In this document: positions 5,951-31,842 of the stretch, piece after piece
Layout: the number at the start of each line of letters is the position of its first letter
Numbering within the stretch: the stretch's first letter is position 1
Source of the DNA: Anaerolinea sp.
Lineage (GTDB): Bacteria > Chloroflexota > Limnocylindria > Limnocylindrales > CSP1-4
Direction: 5' to 3'
Assembly (NCBI GenBank): GCA_013822395.1
Contig: PNKK01000011.1
Coordinates: 4,557 to 68,556 of the forward strand
Length of the DNA stretch: 64,000 nt
Made by a program: the position numbers and the translations under genes
The notes under the pieces: generated by a model
The model's database searches: none
Told to the model about the DNA's origin: nothing
The model's input: the letters and a program-made list of their open reading frames with translations, nothing else

Positions 5951-6616
5951 TCAGGATTGACCCGTAGCGGCTCGCAGTGCTTCGTTCAGCATCGAGGCGA
6001 ACATGACCTCCGTGGGACGATGGTCGCCCCGCATCGACATTTCGGCCGCGCCCGTGAACAGAACATCGTCGGGTCGCGGCTTGATCCGAACGAACGGCGG
6101 CAGCCCGTAACGCACGGCGATCCAGTTCGCCCACACGCGCGCCGTGCGCCCGTTGCCGTTGGCGAACGGGTGGATGCGGATCCATTCGCCGTGGGCGTAG
6201 GCGCACAGCCGGACGATGGCTGCCACGACTGGAGGAGACGAAGCGACGGTGCCCGAGGGGACGGCAGCGTCCAGCGCCGACACGACGGCCGCGGTTGCCC
6301 GCACGAACAGGTCGAGCGCTGCCGGGACGTCCCTGGCCCTCACCCCCCGGGTTGTTCCAACGGCGATCTCATAGTCGATCAGACACGGGACACGCGGATC
6401 ACTGTCGCGCACGTGGCCGACGTAGTCCGGATGCGGCGCGGCCACACGGTCGTAGATCCGGCGGTGCCACTCGAGCGCGATCGCAAGCGACGGCGTGGCC
6501 CGCGCCGTCGCATCGGCTTCGATCATGGGCCAGAGGTCTCTGATGTTGGCGATGATCCTCGCCAGGTCGCCGGGCCGGTCTTCATTCCAATCGGGACATC
6601 CACCCGGCAGGATCAA
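5951..6616 (-). CDS. Fic-domain protein (putative FicT-like toxin)
   Basis: Fic active-site loop HPFANGNGRTAR. A TTG start overlaps the upstream gene's TGA by 4 nt; an alternative ATG lies at 6526. Confidence 0.85.
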   Translation of the reverse strand: MILPGGCPDWNEDRPGDLARIIANIRDLWPMIEADATARATPSLAIALEWHRRIYDRVAAPHPDYVGHVRDSDPRVPCLIDYEIAVGTTRGVRARDVPAALDLFVRATAAVVSALDAAVPSGTVASSPPVVAAIVRLCAYAHGEWIRIHPFANGNGRTARVWANWIAVRYGLPPFVRIKPRPDDVLFTGAAEMSMRGDHRPTEVMFASMLNEALRAATGQS

Positions 6617-13973: not shown

Positions 13974-14019
13974 ACCCTAGCCGGGCGTGATCACAGGGAC
14001 ATCCGTGGGACCACCGAAT
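13974..14019 (-). promoter_or_regulatory. palindrome-plus-promoter element, copy 4 (imperfect)
   Basis: On the minus strand: ATTCGGTGG-TC-CCACGGAT, then 22 nt to TAGGGT, then 6 nt to the ATG of the DUF4242-like gene. The spacing is identical to copies 1-3. It overlaps the LAL stop codon. Confidence 0.45.
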
Positions 14020-16787
14020 CATGGGCGTCGACCCGTGAGCGCGGTCAGGAGTTCCGTCCGCGAGCGGACGTCGAGCTTGCGGTACGCCGACGACAGGTGG
14101 CTCTCGACCGTCCGGACCGACAGGAACAGCTCGTCGGCGATCTCCTGGTTCGTCCGGCCGATGGCGGCCATCTCGGCGACGCGGCGCTCCATGCCCGTCA
14201 GCTCGGCGGGGCTGGCGATCCGGCCGCTCACGCCGGCCGATTCGACCCTGGCTCGCTCCGTCCAGGGCACGCAACCCGCAGCCGCCAGTACGGCGATGCT
14301 CTCCTGGAGCGCCGCCCGCGCCGCCCGGCGCCGGTTCGCACGGCGGAGCGTCGCCCCGAGGGCCAGCAGCGTCCGGCCCCGCTCGACGGCCATCTGGTCC
14401 AGCCCGTCGGTGGCGAGCGATCGCTCGAAACTGCGGATCGCCGCGTCGTCGGCGCCACGTGCCGCCTCGAGGAGTCCGCGTGCCCGGGCCGACACGACGA
14501 GAGACCAGGGGTGACGGCCGCCGGCGGCGCGCTCCTCGAACGTGGCGATCACGTCCTCGGCCTCGTCGAGACGCCCGGTCAGGACAAGTGCTTCAGCGAG
14601 GTCCCCGTCGACCCGGTACCAGCCGGGTTCCGGCAGGCCCATCCGATCGAGTGCCGCCCTCGCGGGGGCGAGCGCGTCGACGGCGGCAATGGGGTCGCCG
14701 ACCGTCAGCTCGAGGAAACCGAGGGCGCCGAGGGCGCGAACCTCGGCCCACGGGTTCCCGACGGCTCGCGCCCGGTCGACGGCGCGGCAGCACCGGCCGC
14801 GCGCCTCGTCGAGGCGGCCGACCGCCGCCCGAACGTGACCGCTCACCGCCCAGATGTTCGCGTCCTCCAGCCCGAGCTCCTCGGCCAGCTCCTCGGCCTC
14901 GTCGGCGCGACCGAGCGCGACCGGGAGGTGCCCGGCGCAGAGCTCCACCCAGGCCAGACAGCGCAGCAGATGGGGCCGCGACGTCCAGTCCCCTTCGCGT
15001 TCGGCCGTGGCCAGGACGGCTTCGATCGCCGCCGCCGATTCGCTGTGCCGGCCGGCGTGGCCGAGGTAGTTCGCCCGGTTGGTGGAGGGGCGGGCCATCA
15101 GCGGCACATCGAGGGCCGCCTCGAGGCGGACCGCCCGATCGATGAGCTCGAAGTTAGGGCCGTGTCCACCCTCGAGGTCGGTGTCGGCGAGCACGATCAT
15201 CGCGGTCGCCACCGACTCCGGATCGTCCGACTCGTGCCCGGCCAGGAGGTCGAGGGCAGCCTGCGCGTGCTCGCGCTCCCAGTCGACGTCGTACCAGGCC
15301 ATGGATGCGGCGGCGACGTGTGCGCGAGCGAGCGCCGCTCGGTCGTCGCCGGCCTCGTCGAGCGCGCGCCGGAGCCACTCCCGCGCGGCTCCCAGCTCGG
15401 CCAGGTCCTGCTCGATCATCGCGAGCAACACGAGCGTCTCGATCCGGCCCGGCCCCGGCGGGAGCAGCACCAGGGATCGGCAGGCAGCCTTACGGGCCTC
15501 CGCCGCTGAGCCCGCGCCGAGCCGGCGCCGGGCGACGACGAGCTCCCGGCGCGAAACGACCACCGGGTCGTCGGTCGGCGAGAGCCGCACGGCGAGCTCC
15601 GCCAGCTCGGCGGCCTCGTCCGAGGCCCCCCGCCGGCGTGCATCCTCCGCGGCTGCGTCAAGGGCGGCGGCCACCGATTCGTGCGGGCCGATCGCGGCGA
15701 GAGCGCGATGTCGGGCGGCCTGCTCCGCGTCGTGCACCACGGCCGCGAGACGCTCGTGGACCTCGCGACGCCGGGCCGGCAGCGCGGTCGAGTAGGCCAC
15801 GGACGCGACGAGCGGATGGGCGCACCGAACGTTCGGCCCGTCGAGCCGGACGAGGTCGGCCGCCACGAGCTGGGGGATCGCCTCGGCGACGGCCTGCTCG
15901 CCGAGGGCGCGCTCGAGCAGCTCGACCGTCGGGTGAGCGAGCGCAGCGAGCGCAAGAAGGATTCGGCCAGCCGACGGCGAGAGCCGGGCGATCCGACCGG
16001 CCAGGAGGGCCCCCGCGTCGCCGGCCACGCGGAGGGGCTCCCCGGGGGTCGGCAGGCGTCCCTGGGCGACGATCGCCCGGGCGAGCTCGAGGGCGAGGAG
16101 CGGGTTCCCGCCAGCCTCCTGCTGGAGCCGTGCGACCACCGGTCGAGGCAACGCCAGGCCGAGCCGATCATGGAGGAGGCGCCCGATCGAACCGACCGAC
16201 AGCCCGCCGAGCACCAGGCGATCGCGGCGATCCTCCGGGAAAGCGAGCTCGAGCGGGGCCGGCTCGGCCGAGCCGGCCCCGCGGCGGGCGGCCAGGACGC
16301 TGACCGGGGTCTTCCCGAGCCGGCGCAGTGCGAACTCGAGGGCCCGGAGCGTCGCCTCGTCGACCCACTGGAGGTCGTCGAGCGCCACCAGGACCGGGGC
16401 CGGTGCCGCGAGCAGGCCGAGCACGGAGAGCACGGCGAGGCCGACCGTGCCGGGATCGGCGTCCGGTCCCCGGCCGGAACTGCGGTCACGGAGAAGGGCC
16501 GCGTCGAGTGCCCGGCGCCGGGGCTCCGGGATGGCCGGCAGCGTGGCGTCCAGCAGCGCATCGGTCAGGAGGCCCGCCAGCCCGGCGAACGCCAGGGGAC
16601 GCTCTGCCTCGCCGGGTCGCAACGCGAGGACACGAAGGCCCGACCGCTCGGCGACCGCGGTGCCGTGTCGCCACAGCGTCGTCTTGCCGATCCCGGGCTC
16701 ACCCTCCACGAGAAGCATGGCCGGGCCGAGACCGACCACGAAGTGCTCGAGCCGCTCTCGCTCGACGTCGCGACCAAGGATCGTCAT
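14019..16787 (-). CDS. LAL-type regulator (AAA/STAND ATPase + TPR-like region + LuxR HTH)
   Basis: Walker A GEPGIGKTTL, Walker B VLVALDDLQWVD, a long helical repeat region and a C-terminal LuxR HTH (RTNQEIADELFLSVRTVESHLSSAYRKLDV). The start is set at ATG 16787 (MTILGRD...) because the upstream part of the ORF translates the repeated promoter element. Confidence 0.9.
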   Translation of the reverse strand: MTILGRDVERERLEHFVVGLGPAMLLVEGEPGIGKTTLWRHGTAVAERSGLRVLALRPGEAERPLAFAGLAGLLTDALLDATLPAIPEPRRRALDAALLRDRSSGRGPDADPGTVGLAVLSVLGLLAAPAPVLVALDDLQWVDEATLRALEFALRRLGKTPVSVLAARRGAGSAEPAPLELAFPEDRRDRLVLGGLSVGSIGRLLHDRLGLALPRPVVARLQQEAGGNPLLALELARAIVAQGRLPTPGEPLRVAGDAGALLAGRIARLSPSAGRILLALAALAHPTVELLERALGEQAVAEAIPQLVAADLVRLDGPNVRCAHPLVASVAYSTALPARRREVHERLAAVVHDAEQAARHRALAAIGPHESVAAALDAAAEDARRRGASDEAAELAELAVRLSPTDDPVVVSRRELVVARRRLGAGSAAEARKAACRSLVLLPPGPGRIETLVLLAMIEQDLAELGAAREWLRRALDEAGDDRAALARAHVAAASMAWYDVDWEREHAQAALDLLAGHESDDPESVATAMIVLADTDLEGGHGPNFELIDRAVRLEAALDVPLMARPSTNRANYLGHAGRHSESAAAIEAVLATAEREGDWTSRPHLLRCLAWVELCAGHLPVALGRADEAEELAEELGLEDANIWAVSGHVRAAVGRLDEARGRCCRAVDRARAVGNPWAEVRALGALGFLELTVGDPIAAVDALAPARAALDRMGLPEPGWYRVDGDLAEALVLTGRLDEAEDVIATFEERAAGGRHPWSLVVSARARGLLEAARGADDAAIRSFERSLATDGLDQMAVERGRTLLALGATLRRANRRRAARAALQESIAVLAAAGCVPWTERARVESAGVSGRIASPAELTGMERRVAEMAAIGRTNQEIADELFLSVRTVESHLSSAYRKLDVRSRTELLTALTGRRP

Positions 16788-16890
16788 CGACTCGTCGACG
16801 ATGCACCTCCTCTGTATGCAGGATGCCACTCGGCCGGCCTCCGCGCGTGGCTCCGCGTCACGGCGCGCAGCCACGGGGTCCGGGCCATGA

Positions 16891-16935
16891 ATCCGTGGTT
16901 CCACGGATGCCCCGGGCATGGCGGGCACCTACTGT
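16891..16935 (+). promoter_or_regulatory. palindrome-plus-promoter element, copy 1
   Basis: Perfect 8-2-8 palindrome ATCCGTGGTTCCACGGAT (16891-16908). TACTGT lies at 16930-16935, 22 nt downstream. It sits within a ~130-nt repeat shared with copies 2 and 3. Confidence 0.5.
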
Positions 16936-16987
16936 GGCCGCGAGAGCCGGCTCCGGGTCGGCCAAAGGAAGGCAATGGGGAAGGCGG

Positions 16988-17077
16988 ATGGATCGTCGAT
17001 CCCGTTCCGTGCTCGTGGCCCCGCTGGTCCTGGGTCTTCTTGCTGGCTGTGCGTCGGCCGGGACTCGGGCGCCGTGA
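16988..17077 (+). pseudogene. truncated A-type lipoprotein (signal peptide only, 29 codons)
   Basis: MDRRSRSVLVAPLVLGLLAGCASAGTRAP* aligns with the first 27 residues of the intact paralog at 22894. The stop overlaps the next gene's GTG (GTGA). Confidence 0.55.
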
Positions 17078-18810
17078 TACCCGACCGCGGCGATGGCCGG
17101 CCGGGCAGGCGGGGCCTCGTCACCGTCGTCGCGGGCCTCGCGCTGGTGGCAGTCGCCTGCTCCGGCGGCGCGCCGGCCCAACCGGGCGGCTCCGCCGAGC
17201 CCGGGGGCGGGTCCGGGTTATCCGCGCCGGTCCCGGGAGCGCCGGGCGTCAACGAATCGTTCAGCTTGGCCGACGTCGACCGGGCCGTGGCCGACCTTGC
17301 GGCGATCGGCGTGGACGTGCGGCTGGCGCCATCCGACGCCGGACCGGCGGTGCCGCCGACCGGCGAGCCGTCGGCCGTCCGGCTCCTGCGCTCCCAGGTC
17401 CGCAACATGGCCCTCGAGCTGGCGGCCGGCGGAGGCGCGTTCGGTGCCAATCTCGACGCGGCCAGCCAGGCAGCCGGCGGCGGACCGGTCAGCGCCCTCC
17501 TGGCCGGCTGGGTGGCGGAGGCAGGCACGCCGGCCGCCGCGCTCGGGGCTTCGCTCATCGACGGATCGGCCAGAGAAGACCCGGCGGCGCGCATCTACCC
17601 ATCCATCGCATTGACCGCCTTCGTGGCCGACGCGACGCGCGGTGCGGGGGCCACCGCCGTGGCGTCGCGAGGCCGATGGCAGGCAACTGGCCGGGGCGTG
17701 TCGATGGTTCTGACCGCGGCGAAGGCGTCCGGCTTCTGTGGTGAGGTGTCAGCCTTCGTGTCGGCGGCGCTCGACGGCGTCGTCGAGTCGGACGCCGATC
17801 TTCCGTCCTGGCTGGCCAAGGTCATCGAGTTCTACGCGCCCCAGTTCAAGGACGATCCGGCGCTGTTTCGCCGAACGGTGGGCGCGATCGCGCTGATGAC
17901 GTATGCGACCAGCCTGGGCCGACCGTGGAGCCTGTCGCTCGACGCGGATCCGTCCGCTGTTGCCTATCGCGTCGAGGGCGGCGATGCCGTCGAGGGCGAG
18001 GTCAACCTGAGTGTCTGGCGCGGACCGAACGTCTACGACGACGAGATCGCGGCATGCGCCGAGCTGGCCGCAGCCCAGCTCGCGTCGAGCCCGGTGAAGG
18101 GGTCGGCGGTCATCTGGAACACGAGCGGACTCGCACCTCATGCCCAGCCGCTCTCGGCCGTCGGCAGCCTCGACGACGACGAGAGTGCCTCGCTCTTCTA
18201 CGAGACCGCGACCGAGAGCAAGGAGGCCGCTCAGCGAGGCACGCCGGTGACAGCCCAGATGCTCGTCTCCGTGGCTGTCGAGCGGGCCGAGATCAGGAAA
18301 CTCGCGGACGTCGTCGAGTCGATCCTGCTCGGCGATGCGGCGGGCAGTCCGGTCGGGCCCGCCGCGCAGGCCCTGTACGCGGCGATGCGGCCGAAGTTGG
18401 ACGCCCTCGCCTTCCCGAGCGCCTTCACGACGATCGACGTGACGTACCACACGCCGCCGGCGTCGCCCAGCCCGAACCCGAGCGACGGGATCACCGGGAC
18501 CTGGGACGGACTCTGGCAGAATGATCAGCAGTGGGGTGGAGCGGCGGGTGGGTTCACGATGGTGGTCGTCCAGAAGGGCAAGGCGTTCAGTGGCACGATC
18601 GACGTGACGGGCCCAACCTGCGTGCGCTCTGGGACTGTTGCCGGAACCGTCGAGAACGGCCGAATCTCGATGGGTTGGGTGGCCGCGGGCATTCGTGACG
18701 TGGCCTTCGAGGGCACACTCACCGGAAGCACGATGGCCGGCACCTGGACGATGACCGCCTGCGGCGTCGAGCAGTCAATCTCCGGCACGTGGTCAGCAGC
18801 CAGGCAGTAG
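17074..18810 (+). CDS. large lipoprotein B1 (shared N-terminal cassette, unique ~530-aa body)
   Basis: Lipobox LALVAVAC followed by SGGAPAQPGGSAEPGGGSG, shared with B2 and B3. I recognise no domain in the remainder. Confidence 0.75.
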   Translation: MIPDRGDGRPGRRGLVTVVAGLALVAVACSGGAPAQPGGSAEPGGGSGLSAPVPGAPGVNESFSLADVDRAVADLAAIGVDVRLAPSDAGPAVPPTGEPSAVRLLRSQVRNMALELAAGGGAFGANLDAASQAAGGGPVSALLAGWVAEAGTPAAALGASLIDGSAREDPAARIYPSIALTAFVADATRGAGATAVASRGRWQATGRGVSMVLTAAKASGFCGEVSAFVSAALDGVVESDADLPSWLAKVIEFYAPQFKDDPALFRRTVGAIALMTYATSLGRPWSLSLDADPSAVAYRVEGGDAVEGEVNLSVWRGPNVYDDEIAACAELAAAQLASSPVKGSAVIWNTSGLAPHAQPLSAVGSLDDDESASLFYETATESKEAAQRGTPVTAQMLVSVAVERAEIRKLADVVESILLGDAAGSPVGPAAQALYAAMRPKLDALAFPSAFTTIDVTYHTPPASPSPNPSDGITGTWDGLWQNDQQWGGAAGGFTMVVVQKGKAFSGTIDVTGPTCVRSGTVAGTVENGRISMGWVAAGIRDVAFEGTLTGSTMAGTWTMTACGVEQSISGTWSAARQ

Positions 18811-24445: not shown

Positions 24446-27400
24446 ATGAGTACGGATCACCGGCGGCCCGGCCGTCCGGTTCGTTACCTGATCCTCGTGT
24501 GGCTCCTCGTTTTCGCTGCCTGCAACCCGGCTCCAGGACCGACGCCCAGCGCGTCCCCGGCATCTTCGGCGCCTCCGACGACCGGGCAGGCGGGCCGCCT
24601 CGCCCTCGAGGAATGTGATCCCGCGGGCTACGTTCCCTGTGAGCATCAGGCTGTCGTCCTGGCGATCCCGCTGGCGGGCACGGGGTTATCGCTCACGTAC
24701 TCGAGCGAGTGGGCAGCGGGACGAATCGACCGGACCGGGTGGGATGCCGGCCGCCTCGGGCTCGGTGGCTGGTCGATCGACGCCCTCGTGCGGTACGACG
24801 CCGCGAACGGCGTCCTGCTCGACGGGGATGGCTCCTGGCGCCTGACCAGACCGGTGCGCCTGGCATCCGGGGAGCAGGCGATCCCCTCCTACGACGGGCG
24901 GCGTGCGTACGTGCTTGACCTGGCCGGTCGGCACGTCCGCACGGTCGACGCCGTCCTCGGGACGACGCTCGTCACGTTCACCTACGATGACGCCGGGCGC
25001 CTGAGCGGCGCCCGAGGCTGGCTCGACGGCCGGGCCATCCGACTCACGGTCGAGCGTTCGACGGATGGGGCTCCCAGCGGGCTGGTCGGTGCGAGCGGGG
25101 CGACGACCGCTCTCGCCCTCGACGGCAACGGTCACCCTCGCTGGGTCGAGGATCCCGCCGGTCGGGCGGTCCTCCTCTCTTCGACCAGGACCGGCCTGGT
25201 CACGGTCTACGTGGACGCGGCCGGTGGCACGACCACGTACGGCTTCGACGACACGGGCAGGCTGACCTCGCTGATGGACCCCGACGGCGTCACCCGTCGG
25301 TACGAGCGCACCGACGCCGCCGGTCGGATCGAGGTCCGTGTCTCGACGCCGCTGAAGCGCGTGGCGACCTACGGCGTTGAGCAGGCGGCCGGCGGAGTGA
25401 AGCGGACGTACGTGGCGGCCGACGGGACGACGACGGCGATGACGGCCGACGCCTCGGGCCTGCGGACGATCGGCCTCCCCGACGGAACCAGGATCACCCT
25501 TGGCGCGCAGCCCGACCCGCGCTGGGGACTCGGGGCCCCGCTCCCGACCCCGATGGTCGAGACGCGGCCTGACGGGGTTCAGCGACGCGTGGGGATCAGG
25601 CAGACGGTCGAGACGGCCCCGGGCGACCCGTTGGCCGTCACAGCCTGGTCGAGAACGACATCCGTCGACGGGAAGGACTGGGTCGAGACGGCTGATCCAG
25701 TGGCCCGGTCGATCACCTGGACGGACCCCGCCGGTCGTCGCACGACCCAGGCGTATGACGGAGGCGGCCGGCTGCTCCGGCAGACCGCGCCCGGTCAGCC
25801 GGAGGTCACGCTCTCGTACGACGAGCTGGACCGGCTCGCCAGCGAGACCCGGGGAAGCGGCGCCGCCGCGGCGACGACCCGCTATGCCTACGACGCCGCG
25901 ACCGGACTGGTCCGCGTCACCCGTCCGGATGGCAGGGTCGATCAGTTCGGGTTCGATGCGAACGGCCGGATCGTCCGCCGGACGGCCCCGGACGGATCGA
26001 CGCTCCTGCTGGCGTACGACGGTGCGGGACGGATCACCGCGGTCCGCCCGCCGGGACGCGCCTCGTTCACCCTCGGGAACAGCACCGCCGGCCGACCGAC
26101 GGGGTTCCTTCCGCCGACGGTCGGTGACGACGGCTCGTACGAGGCGCGGACGTACGACGACGACGGGAACTCGGCGGCGCTCCGCGGGCCCGGCGAGCGC
26201 TCGATCGACATCGGGTATGACGACGCCGGCCGTCCGGTCACCGTGACGTTCGATCAGGGGCGGTCGACGTCCGAGTACGACCCACAGACCGGGCTCCTGG
26301 CGAAGACCGGCGCGCCGGGTGGGGTCGAGACGACCTACATCCGCGCCGGAGCGACGCTGGCCGGCCTCGCCTGGTCCGGCCCGGTCACCGGCTCCGTGAG
26401 CCTGTTGCTCGATCCCGAGCGACGGGTCGTCGGCGAGACGGTCGGCGGCTCGTCCGAGGTCCGGTCCTCCTACGATGGCTCAGGGCTCCTCACCGGCATC
26501 GGCGACCTGACGATGACGCGCGACCCGGTCAGCGGCCTCGCCACGAAGGCGACGCTGGGGACCGTCGACACGACCTGGGAGTACGACGCGAACGGTCGCG
26601 TCACGCGGGCCACGACCGTGGCGAACGGCTCGACCCTGCTCGACCTGCGCTACGAGCGCGACGCGCTCGGGCGGATCGTGACGGTCGGCGAAGCGCGTGG
26701 GGGCGCGCGGCCCACGACGACGCAGTACGCCTACGACGACGCCGACCGCCTGGCAACGGTGACCGTCGACGGCAAGGTCGTCGAGCAGGACGGGTACGAC
26801 GCTGCCGGGAACAGGACGGCGGTCTCCGGCCCGACCGGCGACGTGCGTGCCACGTACGACGACCGCGATCGGCTCGTGCAGTGGGGCACCGGCCGCTACG
26901 GCTACGCTCCCGACGGCACGCTGACTCGCCGGACCGACGGCGGCACCGTCACGACCTACGACGTCGACGACTTCGGAACGCTGCGGGCGGTCACCCTCCC
27001 GAATGGGAGGCGGATCGGGTACGTCGTCGACGGGAACGGGCGGCGGATCGGGCGTTCGGTCGACGGTCGCCTCGTCGCCGGGTATCTCTACCGGCCGGAC
27101 GGCTCGATCGTCGCTGAGCTCAACGGCTCGGGCGCCACCCTCGCGCGATTCGCGTACGACGACCTTGGACGCCTTGCCCTGGTCCAGCGCGGTGGGCGCA
27201 CCTATCGCGTCGTCACCGACCAGCTCGGCAGCCCGCTCCTGGTGATCGATGCGCAGAGCGGCGAGATCGCTGAGTCGATCACCTACGACGCGTGGGGGAA
27301 TATCGTCTCGGACACGGGCCCCGGTCTCGTGCCCTTCGGGTTCGCCGGCGGGTTGCGTGACCCGGACACCGGGCTCGTCCGCTTCGGCGCCCGCGACTAC

Positions 27401-28834
27401 GACCCGACCGTCGGTCGCTGGACCGGCCCGGACCCGATCCGCTTCGACGGCGGCGACGCGAACCTCTACCGCTACGTGGGCGGCGACCCGGTCAACCGCG
27501 TGGATCCGACCGGCCTGGGCGACGTACCGCCTCCGCCGCCTTCACCCAAGTTCAGATGCCTTGCTCTTTCCTGCTTCGGGCCCGGTACCGGCATGGAGAA
27601 ATCAGGTGGTGCTGTCGCCTTCTACTCCGGCTCCGGCTCGGGGGGCTTCACGTGTGTGGGTTTCGTGTGCGAGAACGTGAGCAGCGGGGCAGGCTGCTAT
27701 GGCGGGTACTGCTCATACGGCGATCCTCATCTCAAGACTGCCGACGGCCGCCCCCTCGATTTCCAGGCGGCCGGCGAGTTCCTGGTCATCGCGTCACCGG
27801 ACGGCAGCGTTGTGGTCCAGGCTCGACAGGAGCCCGTCGGGAGCTCGACGCTCGTCACGTACAACACCGCCGTCGCCGCGTCCGTCGCCGGAGACCGCGT
27901 CGGGGTCTACGCCGACGACGCTCGCCCGTTGACCATCGGCGGCAAGCCGATGACGCGCGTCGACTTCTCGGTGCGCCTGCCGAACGGCGGGATCGTCGAG
28001 CGCCACGGATCCGTGGTCACGATCGACTGGCCGAGCGGCGACAGGCTGACGGTCATCCGCAACGGCGATCACCTCGACTACGGATTCGTCCCGGGCGCGA
28101 CGGACGGACCGGTGCTGACCGGTCTTCTCGGCAGCGCCGACGGCAACGTTGCCAACGACCTCACGAGCCGCGGCGGCGGCGTCCTCGACCCGTCGGATCC
28201 GGAGTTCTTCGCCAGGCTGTACGACCCGTTCGGCGCCAGCTGGCGCATCGCCCAAGCCGAATCGCTCTTCGACTACGCTCCCGGCGAGAGCACGGCGACC
28301 TTCACGCGCCTGGACATCCCGAGCGGCCCGGCGACCATCGAGACGCTCGACCAGGCGACCCGCGACCGGGCAGAGGTTCTCTGCCGTGCCGTCGGCGTCC
28401 ACACCGAGCCGACGCTCACGAACTGCATCCTCGACGTCGGGTCCACCGGCGACTCGTCCTACGCAGCCTCCTCAGCGGCGGCGGCGGCCGCGAGCGGGGG
28501 GCGTGGCTCGGCAGCGGCGGCGGGAGGGGGAGAGGCGTCACCGATCGCCGTTGGCGCGACCGCCAGCGGCGTGATCGCCGCGCCGGACGAGAAGGCTCGC
28601 TACACGTTCGCCGGCCGGGCCGGCCAGGTCGTCTACCTCGAGGCCCGGGGGCCCTGCGTCGACGGACTGCTCTGGCGCCTCATCGGTCCGAACACCGAGT
28701 CGCTCGGGTTCGACTTCGCCTGCAAGGACCTCGGCCGGAAGGTCCTGCCCGCCACGGGCACGTACACGATCGAGCTCTACACCGACGGCACCGCCACCGG
28801 CGCCTACGCTTTCCGGCTCCGCTCCGGTACGTGA
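24446..28834 (+). CDS. Rhs/YD-repeat family lipoprotein with VWD-like and PPC-like C-terminal domains
   Basis: Signal/lipobox LILVWLLVFAAC. Dozens of YD repeats (YDDAGRL, YGFDDTGRLTSL, YAYDAATGLV...). RHS core end YRYVGGDPVNRVDPTGL at ~27470-27518. Then a Cys-rich linker, GDPHLKTADGRPLDFQAAGEF (VWD start) and a terminal ARYTFAGRAGQVVYLEA...TYTIELY...GAYAFRL beta-sandwich-like segment. Start could also be ATG 24425. Confidence 0.9.
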   Translation: MSTDHRRPGRPVRYLILVWLLVFAACNPAPGPTPSASPASSAPPTTGQAGRLALEECDPAGYVPCEHQAVVLAIPLAGTGLSLTYSSEWAAGRIDRTGWDAGRLGLGGWSIDALVRYDAANGVLLDGDGSWRLTRPVRLASGEQAIPSYDGRRAYVLDLAGRHVRTVDAVLGTTLVTFTYDDAGRLSGARGWLDGRAIRLTVERSTDGAPSGLVGASGATTALALDGNGHPRWVEDPAGRAVLLSSTRTGLVTVYVDAAGGTTTYGFDDTGRLTSLMDPDGVTRRYERTDAAGRIEVRVSTPLKRVATYGVEQAAGGVKRTYVAADGTTTAMTADASGLRTIGLPDGTRITLGAQPDPRWGLGAPLPTPMVETRPDGVQRRVGIRQTVETAPGDPLAVTAWSRTTSVDGKDWVETADPVARSITWTDPAGRRTTQAYDGGGRLLRQTAPGQPEVTLSYDELDRLASETRGSGAAAATTRYAYDAATGLVRVTRPDGRVDQFGFDANGRIVRRTAPDGSTLLLAYDGAGRITAVRPPGRASFTLGNSTAGRPTGFLPPTVGDDGSYEARTYDDDGNSAALRGPGERSIDIGYDDAGRPVTVTFDQGRSTSEYDPQTGLLAKTGAPGGVETTYIRAGATLAGLAWSGPVTGSVSLLLDPERRVVGETVGGSSEVRSSYDGSGLLTGIGDLTMTRDPVSGLATKATLGTVDTTWEYDANGRVTRATTVANGSTLLDLRYERDALGRIVTVGEARGGARPTTTQYAYDDADRLATVTVDGKVVEQDGYDAAGNRTAVSGPTGDVRATYDDRDRLVQWGTGRYGYAPDGTLTRRTDGGTVTTYDVDDFGTLRAVTLPNGRRIGYVVDGNGRRIGRSVDGRLVAGYLYRPDGSIVAELNGSGATLARFAYDDLGRLALVQRGGRTYRVVTDQLGSPLLVIDAQSGEIAESITYDAWGNIVSDTGPGLVPFGFAGGLRDPDTGLVRFGARDYDPTVGRWTGPDPIRFDGGDANLYRYVGGDPVNRVDPTGLGDVPPPPPSPKFRCLALSCFGPGTGMEKSGGAVAFYSGSGSGGFTCVGFVCENVSSGAGCYGGYCSYGDPHLKTADGRPLDFQAAGEFLVIASPDGSVVVQARQEPVGSSTLVTYNTAVAASVAGDRVGVYADDARPLTIGGKPMTRVDFSVRLPNGGIVERHGSVVTIDWPSGDRLTVIRNGDHLDYGFVPGATDGPVLTGLLGSADGNVANDLTSRGGGVLDPSDPEFFARLYDPFGASWRIAQAESLFDYAPGESTATFTRLDIPSGPATIETLDQATRDRAEVLCRAVGVHTEPTLTNCILDVGSTGDSSYAASSAAAAAASGGRGSAAAAGGGEASPIAVGATASGVIAAPDEKARYTFAGRAGQVVYLEARGPCVDGLLWRLIGPNTESLGFDFACKDLGRKVLPATGTYTIELYTDGTATGAYAFRLRSGT

Positions 28835-29376
28835 CAAGTCAGCCGTCTCGCGATGAGGTGGCTCCTGCGAAGGTCGCCCGAGTGACAGACCGTGACCGGG
28901 GGACCGTCCGCTACCCGGAGGCAGCATGAACATGGCGCTTGACGAGCAGGCGTCGGTGCTCGTCAGGGTGCCGCCGAGCGGCGCCGTCCGGTGAGTCCGA
29001 AGCCAGGTGACGGTCAGCTTGGCCACGAAGACGGTCGGCGTGCTTCCAGACGGCGTTGACGGGGCCACGGCGGGGGCGCCGGGCTCCCGATGGTGTGTCC
29101 AGGGCGACGTTGTCCGGGTCGCTCGCGGCGATCGTGGGCCGTCACGAGTCCCGCGGATGACACGGCCCAGGCGGTGATCGACAGGCTGGCCGGAGTCTCG
29201 CGCCGCACGACCTTCGTGCCGACGGTCGCGGACTGCTTCGTGATCCCGGACAGCCCCCGGCACTTGACGTACCAGCTCAGTGCCCTCGTCTCGTCCGTAG
29301 GACCTTTGGGTTGGGACTGGACTGGCCCTGTTGGGTCGTGGCGGGTCCGACGCGGTGCGCTCACGCTGGCTGCCCA

Positions 29377-31842
29377 GTGGACAGACCTCGACTCGCCGCC
29401 CGCAGCACCCAAACCGCCCGCGCCGGCCGTACCTCGCGGACGGCGGTGCTGCTCTCAGCTGTCATCCTGAGCCTGCTCCTGGCGGGCCCTGCAATCGCCG
29501 CTTCGCAGGCGTTCGCGACACCAAAGACGCTTGCCCCTGCCTGCAGTGGCGTGAACCTTCGGACCTCTGCCTCCCCAAGCGCCAGCATCAAGGTCAAGCT
29601 CGGCCTCGCGAGCCGCGTGACGATCTCGAGCACGGTGAGCGGGTCGCCATGGCGCACCAGCTGCCCGGGCTGGAAGTCTGGCTCGTCCTGGTACACGGTG
29701 ACCCAGGTCGATGGGCGGGCGGTGAGCGCCCTCTACGGCCTGCCCGCCCTGTACGCGGCAACCGGCGTGCTTGTTGCGCCGACCGCCGCCGCTGCTCCAG
29801 TCCCGTCTCCCGCCCCCACCCCCCCGCCGACATCGACCGTCGCTGCCCCCGCCGCGGTTCCTGCCGCCGAGGTCAGCCCCGCATCTGCGGACGGTACCAT
29901 CTACGTGCCGGCGTGTAGCGGCATCAACCTGCGGACGTCCGCCTCCACAAGCGCGACGATCAAGGTCAAGCTCAATCCTGGCAGCACGGTGACCGCCCCG
30001 GGAGCCGTGACCGGGCCCGCGTGGACCACGACCTGCCCGACGTCGAAGGCCGGCTCATCGTGGTACGTCATCACCCAGATCAACGGTCAGGGCGTCAGCG
30101 CACTGTACGGCGTCCCGTTCCTGTTTGCGGCAGGCGGGGTGCTCGTCACGCAGGCTGGCCCGCCGGCACCCACCCAGCCGGCGACCAGCTCCGCGCCGCC
30201 AGAACCGACGCCGCCTCCGGCGCCCACCCTCGCCGCGCCCCCCGCGCCCGTGCCTGCTGCGCCTGCCGTCGCGCCCGGGACGGACACGGTGCTCGCCGCG
30301 GCCTGCGACGGCGTCAACCTCCGGACGGTGGCATCGACGAGCGGAACATTGAAGGCGAAGCTCCCCCTTGCCGCCGTCGTGACCGTCTCGGGCACCGTCA
30401 TCGGCTCCTCGTGGAGCGCGACCTGTCCGACCGCCAAGTCCGGCTCCTCCTGGTATGTCGTCACGCAGGTCAACGGCCAGCCCGTCGGCGGGCTGTACGG
30501 CGTCTCCGCGCTCTACGCGGCGGCGGGGGTCCTGACGGCGCCCGCCACGGGTGCCTCGACCGTCGTGCCCACCCCCACGGCCGCGGCACCGGTCGCCACC
30601 CCTGCCCCCGTCGGTGGTGCGACGACCGTCTCGACCGTCGTCTCGGGGACCGTCCTCGGTCCAAGCACGACCTTCTACGGCCGCGGCTACGGTCACGGCG
30701 TCGGGTTGTCGCAGTACGGCGCCCGCGGCCGGGCGCTCGCCGGTCAGCTCGCACCGGAGATCCTGGCGAACTACTTCCCAGGCACGGCGATCGGGTCGAT
30801 CTCGGTCGACACCGCGATCCGGGTGCTCCTCCTCGACAACTTCGCCCCGACGTCCGTCAAGCCGCTGACCGTCTACGGTCGGGGCGGCGGGTGGTCCTTC
30901 GCCGATGTTGGGATCGAGTTCCCCGCCGATGCCCGGCTCCGGGTCTTTCCGCCGACCTCCTGGGGTGAGTCCTGGCGGGCGATCGTCGATGTCGCGGCGA
31001 CCCAGGTCCTGTACGACGGTCCCATCGCGACGGACTTCAGGATCCGCGGCACGACCGAGGCGACCACCCTTCAGCTCTTCTCCAAGCCATCGGTCTATGA
31101 CCTCTACCGGGGCACCCTCCGCGTCCTCGCGCTGGGAGCGACCGTGGACGTGGTCAACGAGCTGTCGCTGGAGACGTACCTCCGCGGCGTCGTGCCGGCC
31201 GAGATGCCGACGTCCTGGCCGCTCGAGGCCCGGATCGCCCAGACGATCGTGGCACGGTCGTACGCGGCCTACCAGCTGCGCCCCGCGTCGGGCACCTTCG
31301 ACGTCTACGACGACACGCGCTCGCAGGTGTACCTGGGCGTCCGCCAGGAGAAGCCCGACGCCGATGCCGTCATCGCCTCGACGGCCGGCCAGGTCCTGCG
31401 CTACGGGTTGTCGCTCGTCAACGCCGTGTTCCACTCGACGGCGGGCGGCGCCACCGAGAACAATGAGAACGTCTTCGTCTCACCCACGGGCGCGAGGGTG
31501 GCGACCCCGCTGCCGTACCTCCGTGGCTCGCCCGACCGCGATCCGGCCGGCGTCCCATACGATGCGGGCGCGCCATACGCCACTTGGCAGACGAAGGCAT
31601 ATACCGCGGCCGACCTGTCCGCGATCTTCGCGAAAGATGCCCGGACCAACGTGGGAACGCTCATCAGCCTGGACCTGCGCAATCGGGGCGTCTCGGGTCG
31701 CCTGATCAACGTGACACTCATCGGCTCGGGCGGGACGAGGACCGTTTCGGGGGCCGTGTTCATCGCGGCCTTCAACGCCGGCAAGCCGTCGGCGGACCCA
31801 CCGCTCCGCGGGACCCTCCTGGACGTCGCCCCGATTCCCTGA
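29377..31842 (+). CDS. SpoIID/LytB-domain protein with three N-terminal SH3b-like repeats
   Basis: A signal peptide, then three ~80-aa repeats ([12 protein letters not shown]...[11 protein letters not shown]...LYAATGVL) separated by Pro/Ala linkers. The C-terminal SpoIID motif is [23 protein letters not shown] 29377 is preferred over the TTG at 29311. Confidence 0.85.

Follow-up and report, generated by a model that had tools for sequence, protein, structure and literature searches.

A predicted lipoprotein that joins a Rhs/YD-repeat shell to a conserved tail of VWD and PPC-like folds

The DNA examined here is a stretch of 64,000 nucleotides (nt) from the contig PNKK01000011.1 (positions 4,557 to 68,556 of the forward strand; assembly GCA_013822395.1, Anaerolinea sp., order Limnocylindrales of the Chloroflexota), which we call the window and to whose first letter the positions below refer. 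Our subject is the open reading frame (ORF) 24446-28834 on the plus strand, which encodes a Rhs/YD-repeat protein with an unusually large C-terminal tail (Table 1). Its translation is free of stops and gives 1462 amino acids (aa); an in-frame ATG at 24425, seven codons upstream of 24446, provides an alternative start. A charged and then a hydrophobic stretch precede the lipobox LVFAAC near the N-terminus. Both the frame and the lipobox are as claimed in an earlier note, written by a model from the sequence of this window. The lipobox is kept in nearly all complete N-termini of homologues. It is less unusual for a Rhs protein than the note had supposed, as Gram-negative teneurin-like proteins (TLPs) are predicted lipoproteins as well (PMC13018210). 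The genome contains four Lgt-like genes; a lipobox signal peptide and pathway genes for a bacterial lipoprotein are thus both present, lipidation itself being a prediction. No homologue of Omp85/BamA was found in the genome or in any of 26 genomes of the genus, suggesting that the host is most likely a monoderm without an outer membrane. As read from its sequence, the 1462-aa protein is most likely anchored on the outside of the cytoplasmic membrane through the lipid and a Pro/Ser/Thr-rich linker.

Table 1. Features of the Rhs-VWD gene and its surroundings, in window coordinates.
Feature	Residues (aa)	Position (nt)	Strand	Evidence
DUF3558-like small lipoprotein gene, candidate partner, 175 nt upstream		23557..24270	+	Pfam PF12079, E 1.8e-4, below cut-off
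Lipoprotein signal peptide, lipobox LVFAAC (residues 21-26), C26 the would-be lipidated residue		24446..24523	+	Translation
Pro/Ser/Thr-rich tether from lipid anchor to shell	27-50	24524..24595	+	Composition; like linkers in homologues
N-terminal plug region (conserved Cys pair C57/C65) and YD-repeat shell	51-946	24596..27283	+	Pfam, AlphaFold2, Foldseek
Rhs-associated core, residues R983, D996 and D1020, ending in DPTGL	947-1024	27284..27517	+	TIGR03696
Stalk: polyproline, then three C-x4-C mini-loops in a Gly/Ser-rich stretch	1025-1091	27518..27718	+	Sequence
VWD beta-sandwich, cysteine-free	~1088-1244	27707..28177	+	Pfam PF00094, AlphaFold2, Foldseek
GDPH motif, possible Asp-Pro self-cleavage site at first VWD strand	G1092-H1095	27719..27730	+	Sequence
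Helical C8-like/RGM_C-like subdomain, conserved Cys pair C1313/C1327, ESLFDY motif	~1254-1357	28205..28516	+	AlphaFold2, Foldseek, weak Pfam
PPC-fold beta-sandwich, conserved Cys pair, one copy	~1372-1461	28559..28828	+	AlphaFold2 (pLDDT ~90), Foldseek
18-bp palindrome copies		16891-16908, 19184-19201, 22799-22816 (exact); 14001-14018 (3 mismatches)		

The plug region and the YD repeats together span ~975 aa, close to the about 1000 aa of YD repeats that had been noted before. Pfam matched RHS_repeat (PF05593) in 11 stretches of the shell (E 3e-41) and TEN_YD-shell (E 1e-32), and AlphaFold2 (AF2) modelled the shell with a predicted local distance difference test score (pLDDT) of ~94. In Foldseek, the top fold match of the shell was the bacterial teneurin-like 9ifo_A (E 1e-74, 30% identity), followed by teneurins (E 1e-58 to 1e-52) and then by Rhs proteins of type VI secretion systems. 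The Rhs-associated core was recognised as NCBIfam Rhs_assc_core TIGR03696 at residues 947-1024 (E 1e-22), and its closing motif, YRYVGGDPVNRVDPTGL, finishes at L1024, that is, at nt 27517. This motif is as real as the earlier note had it, but the tail behind it, given there as 437 aa from 27522, is in fact 438 aa long and begins at nt 27518; its mass is 44.6 kDa. The tandem repeats, together with the catalytic Arg and the two Asp residues, identify the protein as a Rhs/YD-repeat protein with a Rhs-associated core. The three residues show an R-13-D-24-D spacing identical to that of the catalytic R2103/D2116/D2140 of the TLP BiTLP, and the PDPI Asp and the DPxGL Asp are each kept in 136 of the 137 members of the family described below. 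This conservation and the BiTLP-like spacing suggest that cleavage after L1024 is probably under selection, and the Rhs aspartyl autoprotease formed by R983, D996 and D1020 is, from sequence, most likely to make the cut.

A model of the tail, built by AF2 from a 59-sequence alignment (pLDDT 84), consisted of ~58 disordered residues, a beta-sandwich at ~1088-1215, helices at ~1254-1357 and a second beta-sandwich at ~1372-1461. When the tail was scanned alone, Pfam placed PF00094 at residues 1091-1244 (E 1.3e-5, 26 bits against a gathering cut-off of 22.9), and this part was modelled with pLDDT >90. Foldseek against the PDB matched the D assemblies of MUC2, MUC5AC, VWF and FCGBP (E 4e-12 to 1e-8) over ~280-300 columns, which cover VWD and C8. 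A VWD match at E 1e-5 or better (best 7e-39) was also present in 47 of 52 non-Rhs relatives of the module. Five of the 52 in addition matched RGM_C, with E-values up to 6e-15, and on the tail itself RGM_C gave a weak match at ~1295-1346 (E 0.002), within the helical subdomain that ends in an Ala/Ser/Gly linker. The VWD domain proposed in the earlier note is thereby borne out. For the PPC domain proposed there, the result was divided: the last ~90 aa matched the PPC domain of collagenase 5sv5 by fold (Foldseek, target template modelling (TM) score 0.74, E 1.5e-5) and some homologous copies reach PF04151, but Pfam gave no match on the last 137 aa, so that PPC is not called on this copy. A sequence search of the PDB with the tail returned chance matches only (E >0.6), and neither Pfam nor Foldseek found a toxin fold in the tail. 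Taken together, the models and matches indicate that the tail is composed of a VWD domain, a C8/RGM-like part and a PPC fold, consistent with the claim that it is not a toxin.

At least 137 protein clusters, from metagenome-assembled genomes (MAGs) of Chloroflexota, Dormibacterota, Acidobacteriota, Gemmatimonadota and Actinomycetota, combine the shell with a VWD tail. A search with the tail returned more than 100 proteins of Rhs length (1450-1870 aa) at 40-88% identity; where a source was named, the labels were Limnocylindrales, Dormibacterota, Pseudonocardiales, Acidimicrobiales, Terriglobales and similar; the nearest homologues were labelled Limnocylindrales or Chloroflexia. When the shell alone (aa 1-1025) was the query, the ~85 best matches (775-1370 bits) were almost all VWD-tailed; of the three exceptions, one is partial, one a fragment and one probably frameshifted. 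Below them the score fell to 611 bits, reached by TTR/FN-plug/NHL/YD-shell proteins, true TLPs whose tips measure 62-197 aa. The tails of the 137 Rhs-plus-VWD proteins measure 241-974 aa (median 672) and carry 0-4 PPC copies. Most of these proteins (104) finish directly at the PPC domain, and no toxin was found at the far C-terminus of any of the 137, the extra sequence being a further PPC-like domain of divergent type or a segment of Cys repeats. Shell and VWD occupied the same range of pairwise identity (0.27-0.86), and the two identities were correlated with a Spearman coefficient of 0.87 over 1653 pairs. By this measure shell and tail are inherited together, contrary to what C-terminal displacement would give, and the tail is not polymorphic. 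The small hypervariable tip that differs between close shells, a hallmark of polymorphic toxins, was not seen. Likewise, no plausible small ORF lies on the same strand at 28835-29310, the 476 nt past the stop, as the earlier note had remarked for immunity-like ORFs; the gene of a DUF3558-like lipoprotein lies directly upstream and is met again at other loci. The synteny of 25 further loci revealed no universally conserved neighbour, the downstream genes differing between loci; an immunity gene behind the Rhs gene, as in Rhs polymorphic toxin systems, was thus not found here, nor a conserved one across those loci. On the sequence evidence, then, this is a YD-shell protein with a Rhs core that falls outside the definition of a polymorphic toxin, having no small hypervariable tip and no immunity gene. 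The observation is confirmed as real and the family as robust.

The tail is made of two units that also occur independently of each other, a VWD-plus-helical unit (tail residues ~60-325) and a PPC-like unit of ~95 aa. An exhaustive profile-free search gave 5129 representative clusters matching the tail at E 1e-3 or better. Both units also stand by themselves as extracellular modules, on peptidases (M23, M48, S8), on lectins and on proteins of the Ig-like, PA14, dockerin, PLD and OmpA types. The PPC-like unit is arrayed in up to 28 copies in giant proteins. Five proteins of 2952-6414 aa (P0129, P0135, P0175, P0187 and P0190) carry 12-25 PPC-like copies followed by a Rhs core with a tip of 62-190 aa; the same unit therefore appears, from these architectures, to double as an N-terminal stalk of ordinary Rhs toxins.

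Within species genomes of GTDB, Rhs-VWD proteins were found in Chloroflexia/Limnocylindrales, Dormibacteraeota, Acidobacteriota, Gemmatimonadales and Mycobacteriales MAGs and in a single MAG of the Gammaproteobacteria. Without the Rhs part, the VWD unit is frequent among Myxococcota, Cyanobacteria, Actinomycetota and Bacteroidota, cultured strains included. An orthologue was present in 1 of 24 other species of the genus (52% identity); a sample of 200 genomes of the phylum contained no close orthologue, and weaker VWD proteins in three. It is thus a rare accessory gene, and its spread across phyla suggests horizontal transfer. We also considered that the gene could be a decaying or domesticated relic of a toxin Rhs gene with no current function, or a chimeric product of MAG assembly, given that the genome, a MAG of 194 contigs, is 70% complete, that the gene lies in an accessory island and that some homologues are frameshifted. 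However, the full-length architecture and intact frames recur, at 40-88% identity, in at least 137 clusters that come from several phyla and from numerous separate assemblies, invariant residues occur throughout, and the GC content at third codon positions is uniformly high, as in the neighbouring genes; we therefore regard a relic or artefact as extremely improbable. Of the frameshifted homologues, L022:2453-7812 from an Acidobacteriaceae MAG has a Rhs frame that stops at 6064 and a VWD in another frame from 6028 (MHFDFQAAGEF...), the shift falling right at the GDPH site, and P0264 is apparently frameshifted within the stalk. Both are either pseudogenes or assembly errors.

The GDPH motif lies exactly where the earlier note had placed it. 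In this protein, D1093-P1094 and H1095 are accompanied by Q1107 at +14. In FCGBP, the Asp-Pro bond is cut only with D and H in place, a Gln at +14 assists the reaction, and the cut stabilises the domain (PMC10880436). Self-cleavage at GD/PH is plausible for the present protein on the strength of these residues. Among 138 Rhs-linked copies, GDPH occurs in 49, GDTH in 39 and GEPH in 37; the His is invariant in the family and the Gln at +14 nearly so. Since the Asp-Pro bond is retained in only 54 of the 138 orthologues (~39%), a second cleavage would not be a family trait, and the motif appears from this pattern to be primarily structural and cleavage no requirement of the family. The refuting condition that the earlier note had set itself, GDPH not being conserved in orthologues, thus applies in part: the motif as a whole and its bond vary, the His is invariant, and cleavage in this copy stays plausible.

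The stalk between core and VWD was modelled with pLDDT <50. Across the family it is 0-267 aa long (median 119), its number of Cys residues is almost always even, and these form C-x4-6-C mini-loops. The even Cys counts, the mini-loops, the polyproline and the variable length fit, as sequence features, a disulfide-stapled extracellular spacer. Disulfide mini-loops between polyproline stretches are found in the stalk (27518-27718) and also in the extracytoplasmic part (21950-22667) of an upstream 739-aa membrane protein; this design may be a spacer shared by envelope proteins of the organism. One could instead suppose that the hypervariable Cys-rich segment of aa 1025-1093 (~6.6 kDa) is itself the payload, freed by two flanking self-cleavages as a small disulfide-rich toxin or signal peptide, with the VWD-PPC part serving only in targeting or processing. 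The segment does occupy the exact position of a Rhs toxin, would fit the cavity by size, is the only hypervariable part of the family and is bounded here by DPTGL and by an intact GDPH with the supporting H and Q; in a few homologues it contains Gly-rich hydrophobic stretches. Its low-complexity, Pro-rich sequence with a varying number of C-x4-6-C mini-loops is nevertheless spacer-like, the D-P bond required for the second cut is missing in ~61% of orthologues, AF2 finds no fold in it, and no immunity gene was found. We consider a payload of this kind quite improbable.

Whether the tail lies inside or outside the shell is constrained by its size. Three-turn cocoons, such as those of RhsA and teneurin, hold ~15 kDa, and the four-turn Tc cocoons ~30 kDa (PMC8765631); the BiTLP cavity measures ~44,000 cubic angstroms, and its authors propose a limit of ~15 kDa for the tip (PMC13018210). 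By our own figure of ~1.2 cubic angstroms per Da, the perfectly packed tail would take up ~54,000 cubic angstroms and a tail of the family median (~68 kDa) ~80,000. The adhesive cargo enclosed in the shell that the earlier note had offered as one of two possibilities is thus physically unlikely. The size also bears on the classical Rhs arrangement, in which the whole region behind DPxGL would be held unfolded inside the shell and delivered into or onto a target, the VWD-PPC part being an unrecognised effector. In its favour, the core and the autoprotease residues are intact and strongly conserved, and the cleaved tail is internal in every structurally characterised bacterial Rhs, Tc and TLP protein (PMC8765631, PMC13018210). 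Yet the tails, which reach 974 aa, far exceed the reported capacity; moreover, the tail is conserved and not polymorphic, no immunity gene was found, and its domains are typical of folded, disulfide-bonded extracellular modules. These data suggest that classical encapsulation is quite unlikely.

We prefer the alternative that the protein is a self-processing, lipid-anchored YD shell bearing an externally placed, non-toxin binding module, a reading that we consider reasonably likely. It corresponds to the other possibility of the earlier note, a surface adhesin that has co-opted the Rhs cage, and of the two it best fits the non-toxin folds, the size and the conservation of the tail. It is also favoured by the even Cys numbers of the stalk, by the conserved lipobox with Lgt present and Omp85/BamA absent, by the free-standing use of VWD and PPC units elsewhere, by the lack of a conserved downstream gene, and by the contrast with a canonical Rhs toxin locus in the same genome. 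The YD/Rhs shell would here serve as a scaffold on the cell surface, not as a toxin capsule. Because the tail exceeds the reported cavity and the stalk fits an extracellular spacer, the folded VWD-PPC part would be located outside the shell, as in teneurins, with stalk, VWD/C8-like part and PPC forming an extracellular module for binding or adhesion. The autoprotease would cut after L1024, and GD/PH might also self-cleave in this protein. As the VWD is cysteine-free, the stalk Cys residues would be paired locally and no covalent tether is seen, the VWD-PPC part may then either stay non-covalently attached or be shed, two outcomes that we rate about equal.

Several points weigh against this external module. 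Arg and both Asp are kept in 136 of 137 members, while the teneurins, the only precedent for an external tail, have lost them, and an external tail, once cut, would have no evident covalent link to the shell. The solved bacterial teneurin-like protein shows no opening of the shell (PMC13018210). An AF2 model of aa 51-1250 (pLDDT 87, predicted TM score 0.82) was confident for shell and VWD and had a linker with pLDDT <50, and was uninformative as to whether the VWD lies inside or outside. Lytic enzymes (M23, PLD) are among the fusion partners of VWD modules, and an antagonistic role is possible.

Teneurins resemble the present protein in using a three-turn YD shell as a surface scaffold and in a C-terminal region that is conserved, not polymorphic, and bigger than the cavity can take. 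They differ in being type II membrane proteins with EGF, FN-plug and NHL domains, a lost Rhs autoprotease motif and an ABD/Tox-GHH tail, whereas the protein described here has a lipobox anchor, no NHL, conserved R/D/D residues and a VWD-PPC tail. The TLPs (BiTLP, PDB 9ifo; Raoelijaona et al. 2026, PMC13018210) are the best structural match and the nearest outgroup in shell sequence. They share the R-13-D-24-D spacing and surface display, and some are predicted lipoproteins; unlike the present protein, they consist of FN-plug, NHL and YD shell, enclose polymorphic toxins of ~15 kDa and are followed at nearly every locus by an immunity gene (PMC13018210). The TLP superfold was not recovered here: Pfam TTR_TEN, FN-plug_TEN and NHL gave no match in this protein, whereas the outgroup proteins P0273 and P0290 have all three, and the 975 aa between tether and core leave no room for an NHL propeller.

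Canonical toxins of the Rhs/WapA type share with this protein the YD repeats, a Rhs-associated core ending in DPxGL and Sec-dependent export, but their small hypervariable tips, cognate immunity genes and orphan cassettes are all missing at this locus. The same genome provides a contrast on contig C31 (reverse strand, 15612-22826 and downstream), where a Sec signal, PKD domains and a Rhs shell lead to a Gly/Ala-rich hydrophobic tip of 137 aa; behind it come an ORF for an immunity-like membrane protein and orphan DPxGL cassettes, and C43, C145 and C162 carry further orphan tips. Judged by its gene content, the C31 locus is a canonical polymorphic Rhs toxin locus.

On the side of the tail, the D assemblies of mucins, VWF and FCGBP and the C-terminal region of RGM share with it a VWD beta-sandwich starting at GDPH, a helical C8-like part, and the H and the +14 Q. 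In comparison with D assemblies, the bacterial module has a single Cys pair in the C8-like part, no TIL/E modules, no interfragment disulfide, and a D-P unconserved in the family. Myxobacterial metallopeptidase-SAA-vWD proteins, with a C-terminal vWD and beta-sandwiches, have been proposed to mediate adhesion to other cells (Burroughs, Aravind et al. 2025, PMC12419801). They were called 'the first bacterial example' of vWD, and a fusion with Rhs is not described there (PMC12419801). In the myxobacterial proteins the enzyme or toxin domain stands N-terminal to the vWD, a place taken here by the YD shell; P0121-type relatives, with M48 plus VWD, were among the matches of our tail search. We found no description of a Rhs-VWD fusion in the literature searched.

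To our knowledge, bacterial Rhs/YD shells are treated as toxin capsules, and the only accepted non-toxin use is in animals, namely the teneurins and the mosquito SGS1. Our wider proposal is that soil bacteria independently domesticated the Rhs/YD toxin cage as a self-processing shell that presents or sheds a VWD adhesion or recognition module, in part with a DUF3558-like lipoprotein as partner; this remains tentative, and we give it slightly less than an even chance. If true, prokaryotes would offer a counterpart to the toxin-to-receptor transition behind the animal teneurins, and there would be evidence for an ancient bacterial origin of VWD/RGM-type modules and their GDPH chemistry. A widespread, conserved family with an oversized mucin-type module would mean that bacteria themselves had put the cage to a new use, and the Rhs-VWD family would offer a tractable model of how a C-terminal region leaves or is released from a YD shell. 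The record of bacterial VWD domains is extended as well: they were newly seen according to a 2025 survey (PMC12419801), yet the tail alone matches the several thousand representative clusters counted above. Such simple, Cys-poor bacterial VWD domains could be used to study GDPH self-cleavage.

Around the gene, one lead is the DUF3558-like gene directly upstream. Members of its subfamily adjoin the Rhs-VWD gene at 6 of 25 other loci, against none of 61 VWD-only loci (Fisher p 4e-4), a comparison in which the neighbours were called by sub-threshold PF12079 matches or by a hidden Markov model (HMM) built from such matches, four of the six positive loci trained the HMM, and the two sets of loci differ in taxonomy. 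The six positive loci are G013 of the same genus, Chloroflexia, Limnocylindrales, Sulfotelmatobacter and gammaproteobacterial MAGs, and the further MAG L012; subfamily members are listed in loci L012, L014, L025, L031, L035 and L096. Position and strand of the neighbour vary between loci. The subfamily is characterised by a D-P-C-x-L-L start, a G-[LIV]-G-D-x-A motif and an ...ARL end, and in the genome itself it comprises only two paralogues of the island, at 23557-24270 and 19382-19990. Pairwise BLAST detected no similarity between the neighbour in the window and that of L012, the two being linked only through Pfam and the custom HMM. As a lead from sequence, the DUF3558-like lipoprotein is a candidate partner protein and not an immunity gene.

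Large ATPase-type regulators are encoded upstream in several loci, a LAL regulator here and in L009 and a BTAD-AAA16-TPR protein in G013. The island contains an 18-bp palindrome, ATCCGTGGTTCCACGGAT, within repeated promoter-like segments of 92 nt, with seven matches against 0.09 expected. Ahead of the Rhs start there is a half-site-like stretch and no full match of this LAL operator of the island within 3 mismatches, and the operator is also missing from homologous loci; the Rhs gene may be read through from the unit at 22799. Promoter and terminator scans and folding of the 175-nt upstream gap yielded nothing distinctive (z -0.6).

In other loci, a small protein of ~83-109 aa is encoded ~0.7-3.5 kb upstream of the Rhs-VWD gene (L009:4117-4368, L014:1717-2019, L018:1090-1419), and one at L024:2465-2758 abuts the Rhs ORF; Pfam called only the L009 protein SCO4226-like, and the others were judged alike by eye (...E-x-F/Y-W-P-G-V...). 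Downstream of the gene in the window, 29311-31842 encodes a SpoIID-domain protein, whose true start probably lies well inside the listed ORF. Its SpoIID domain follows three tandem SH3-like repeats of ~110 aa that carry SSWY, with Pro/Ala-rich linkers.

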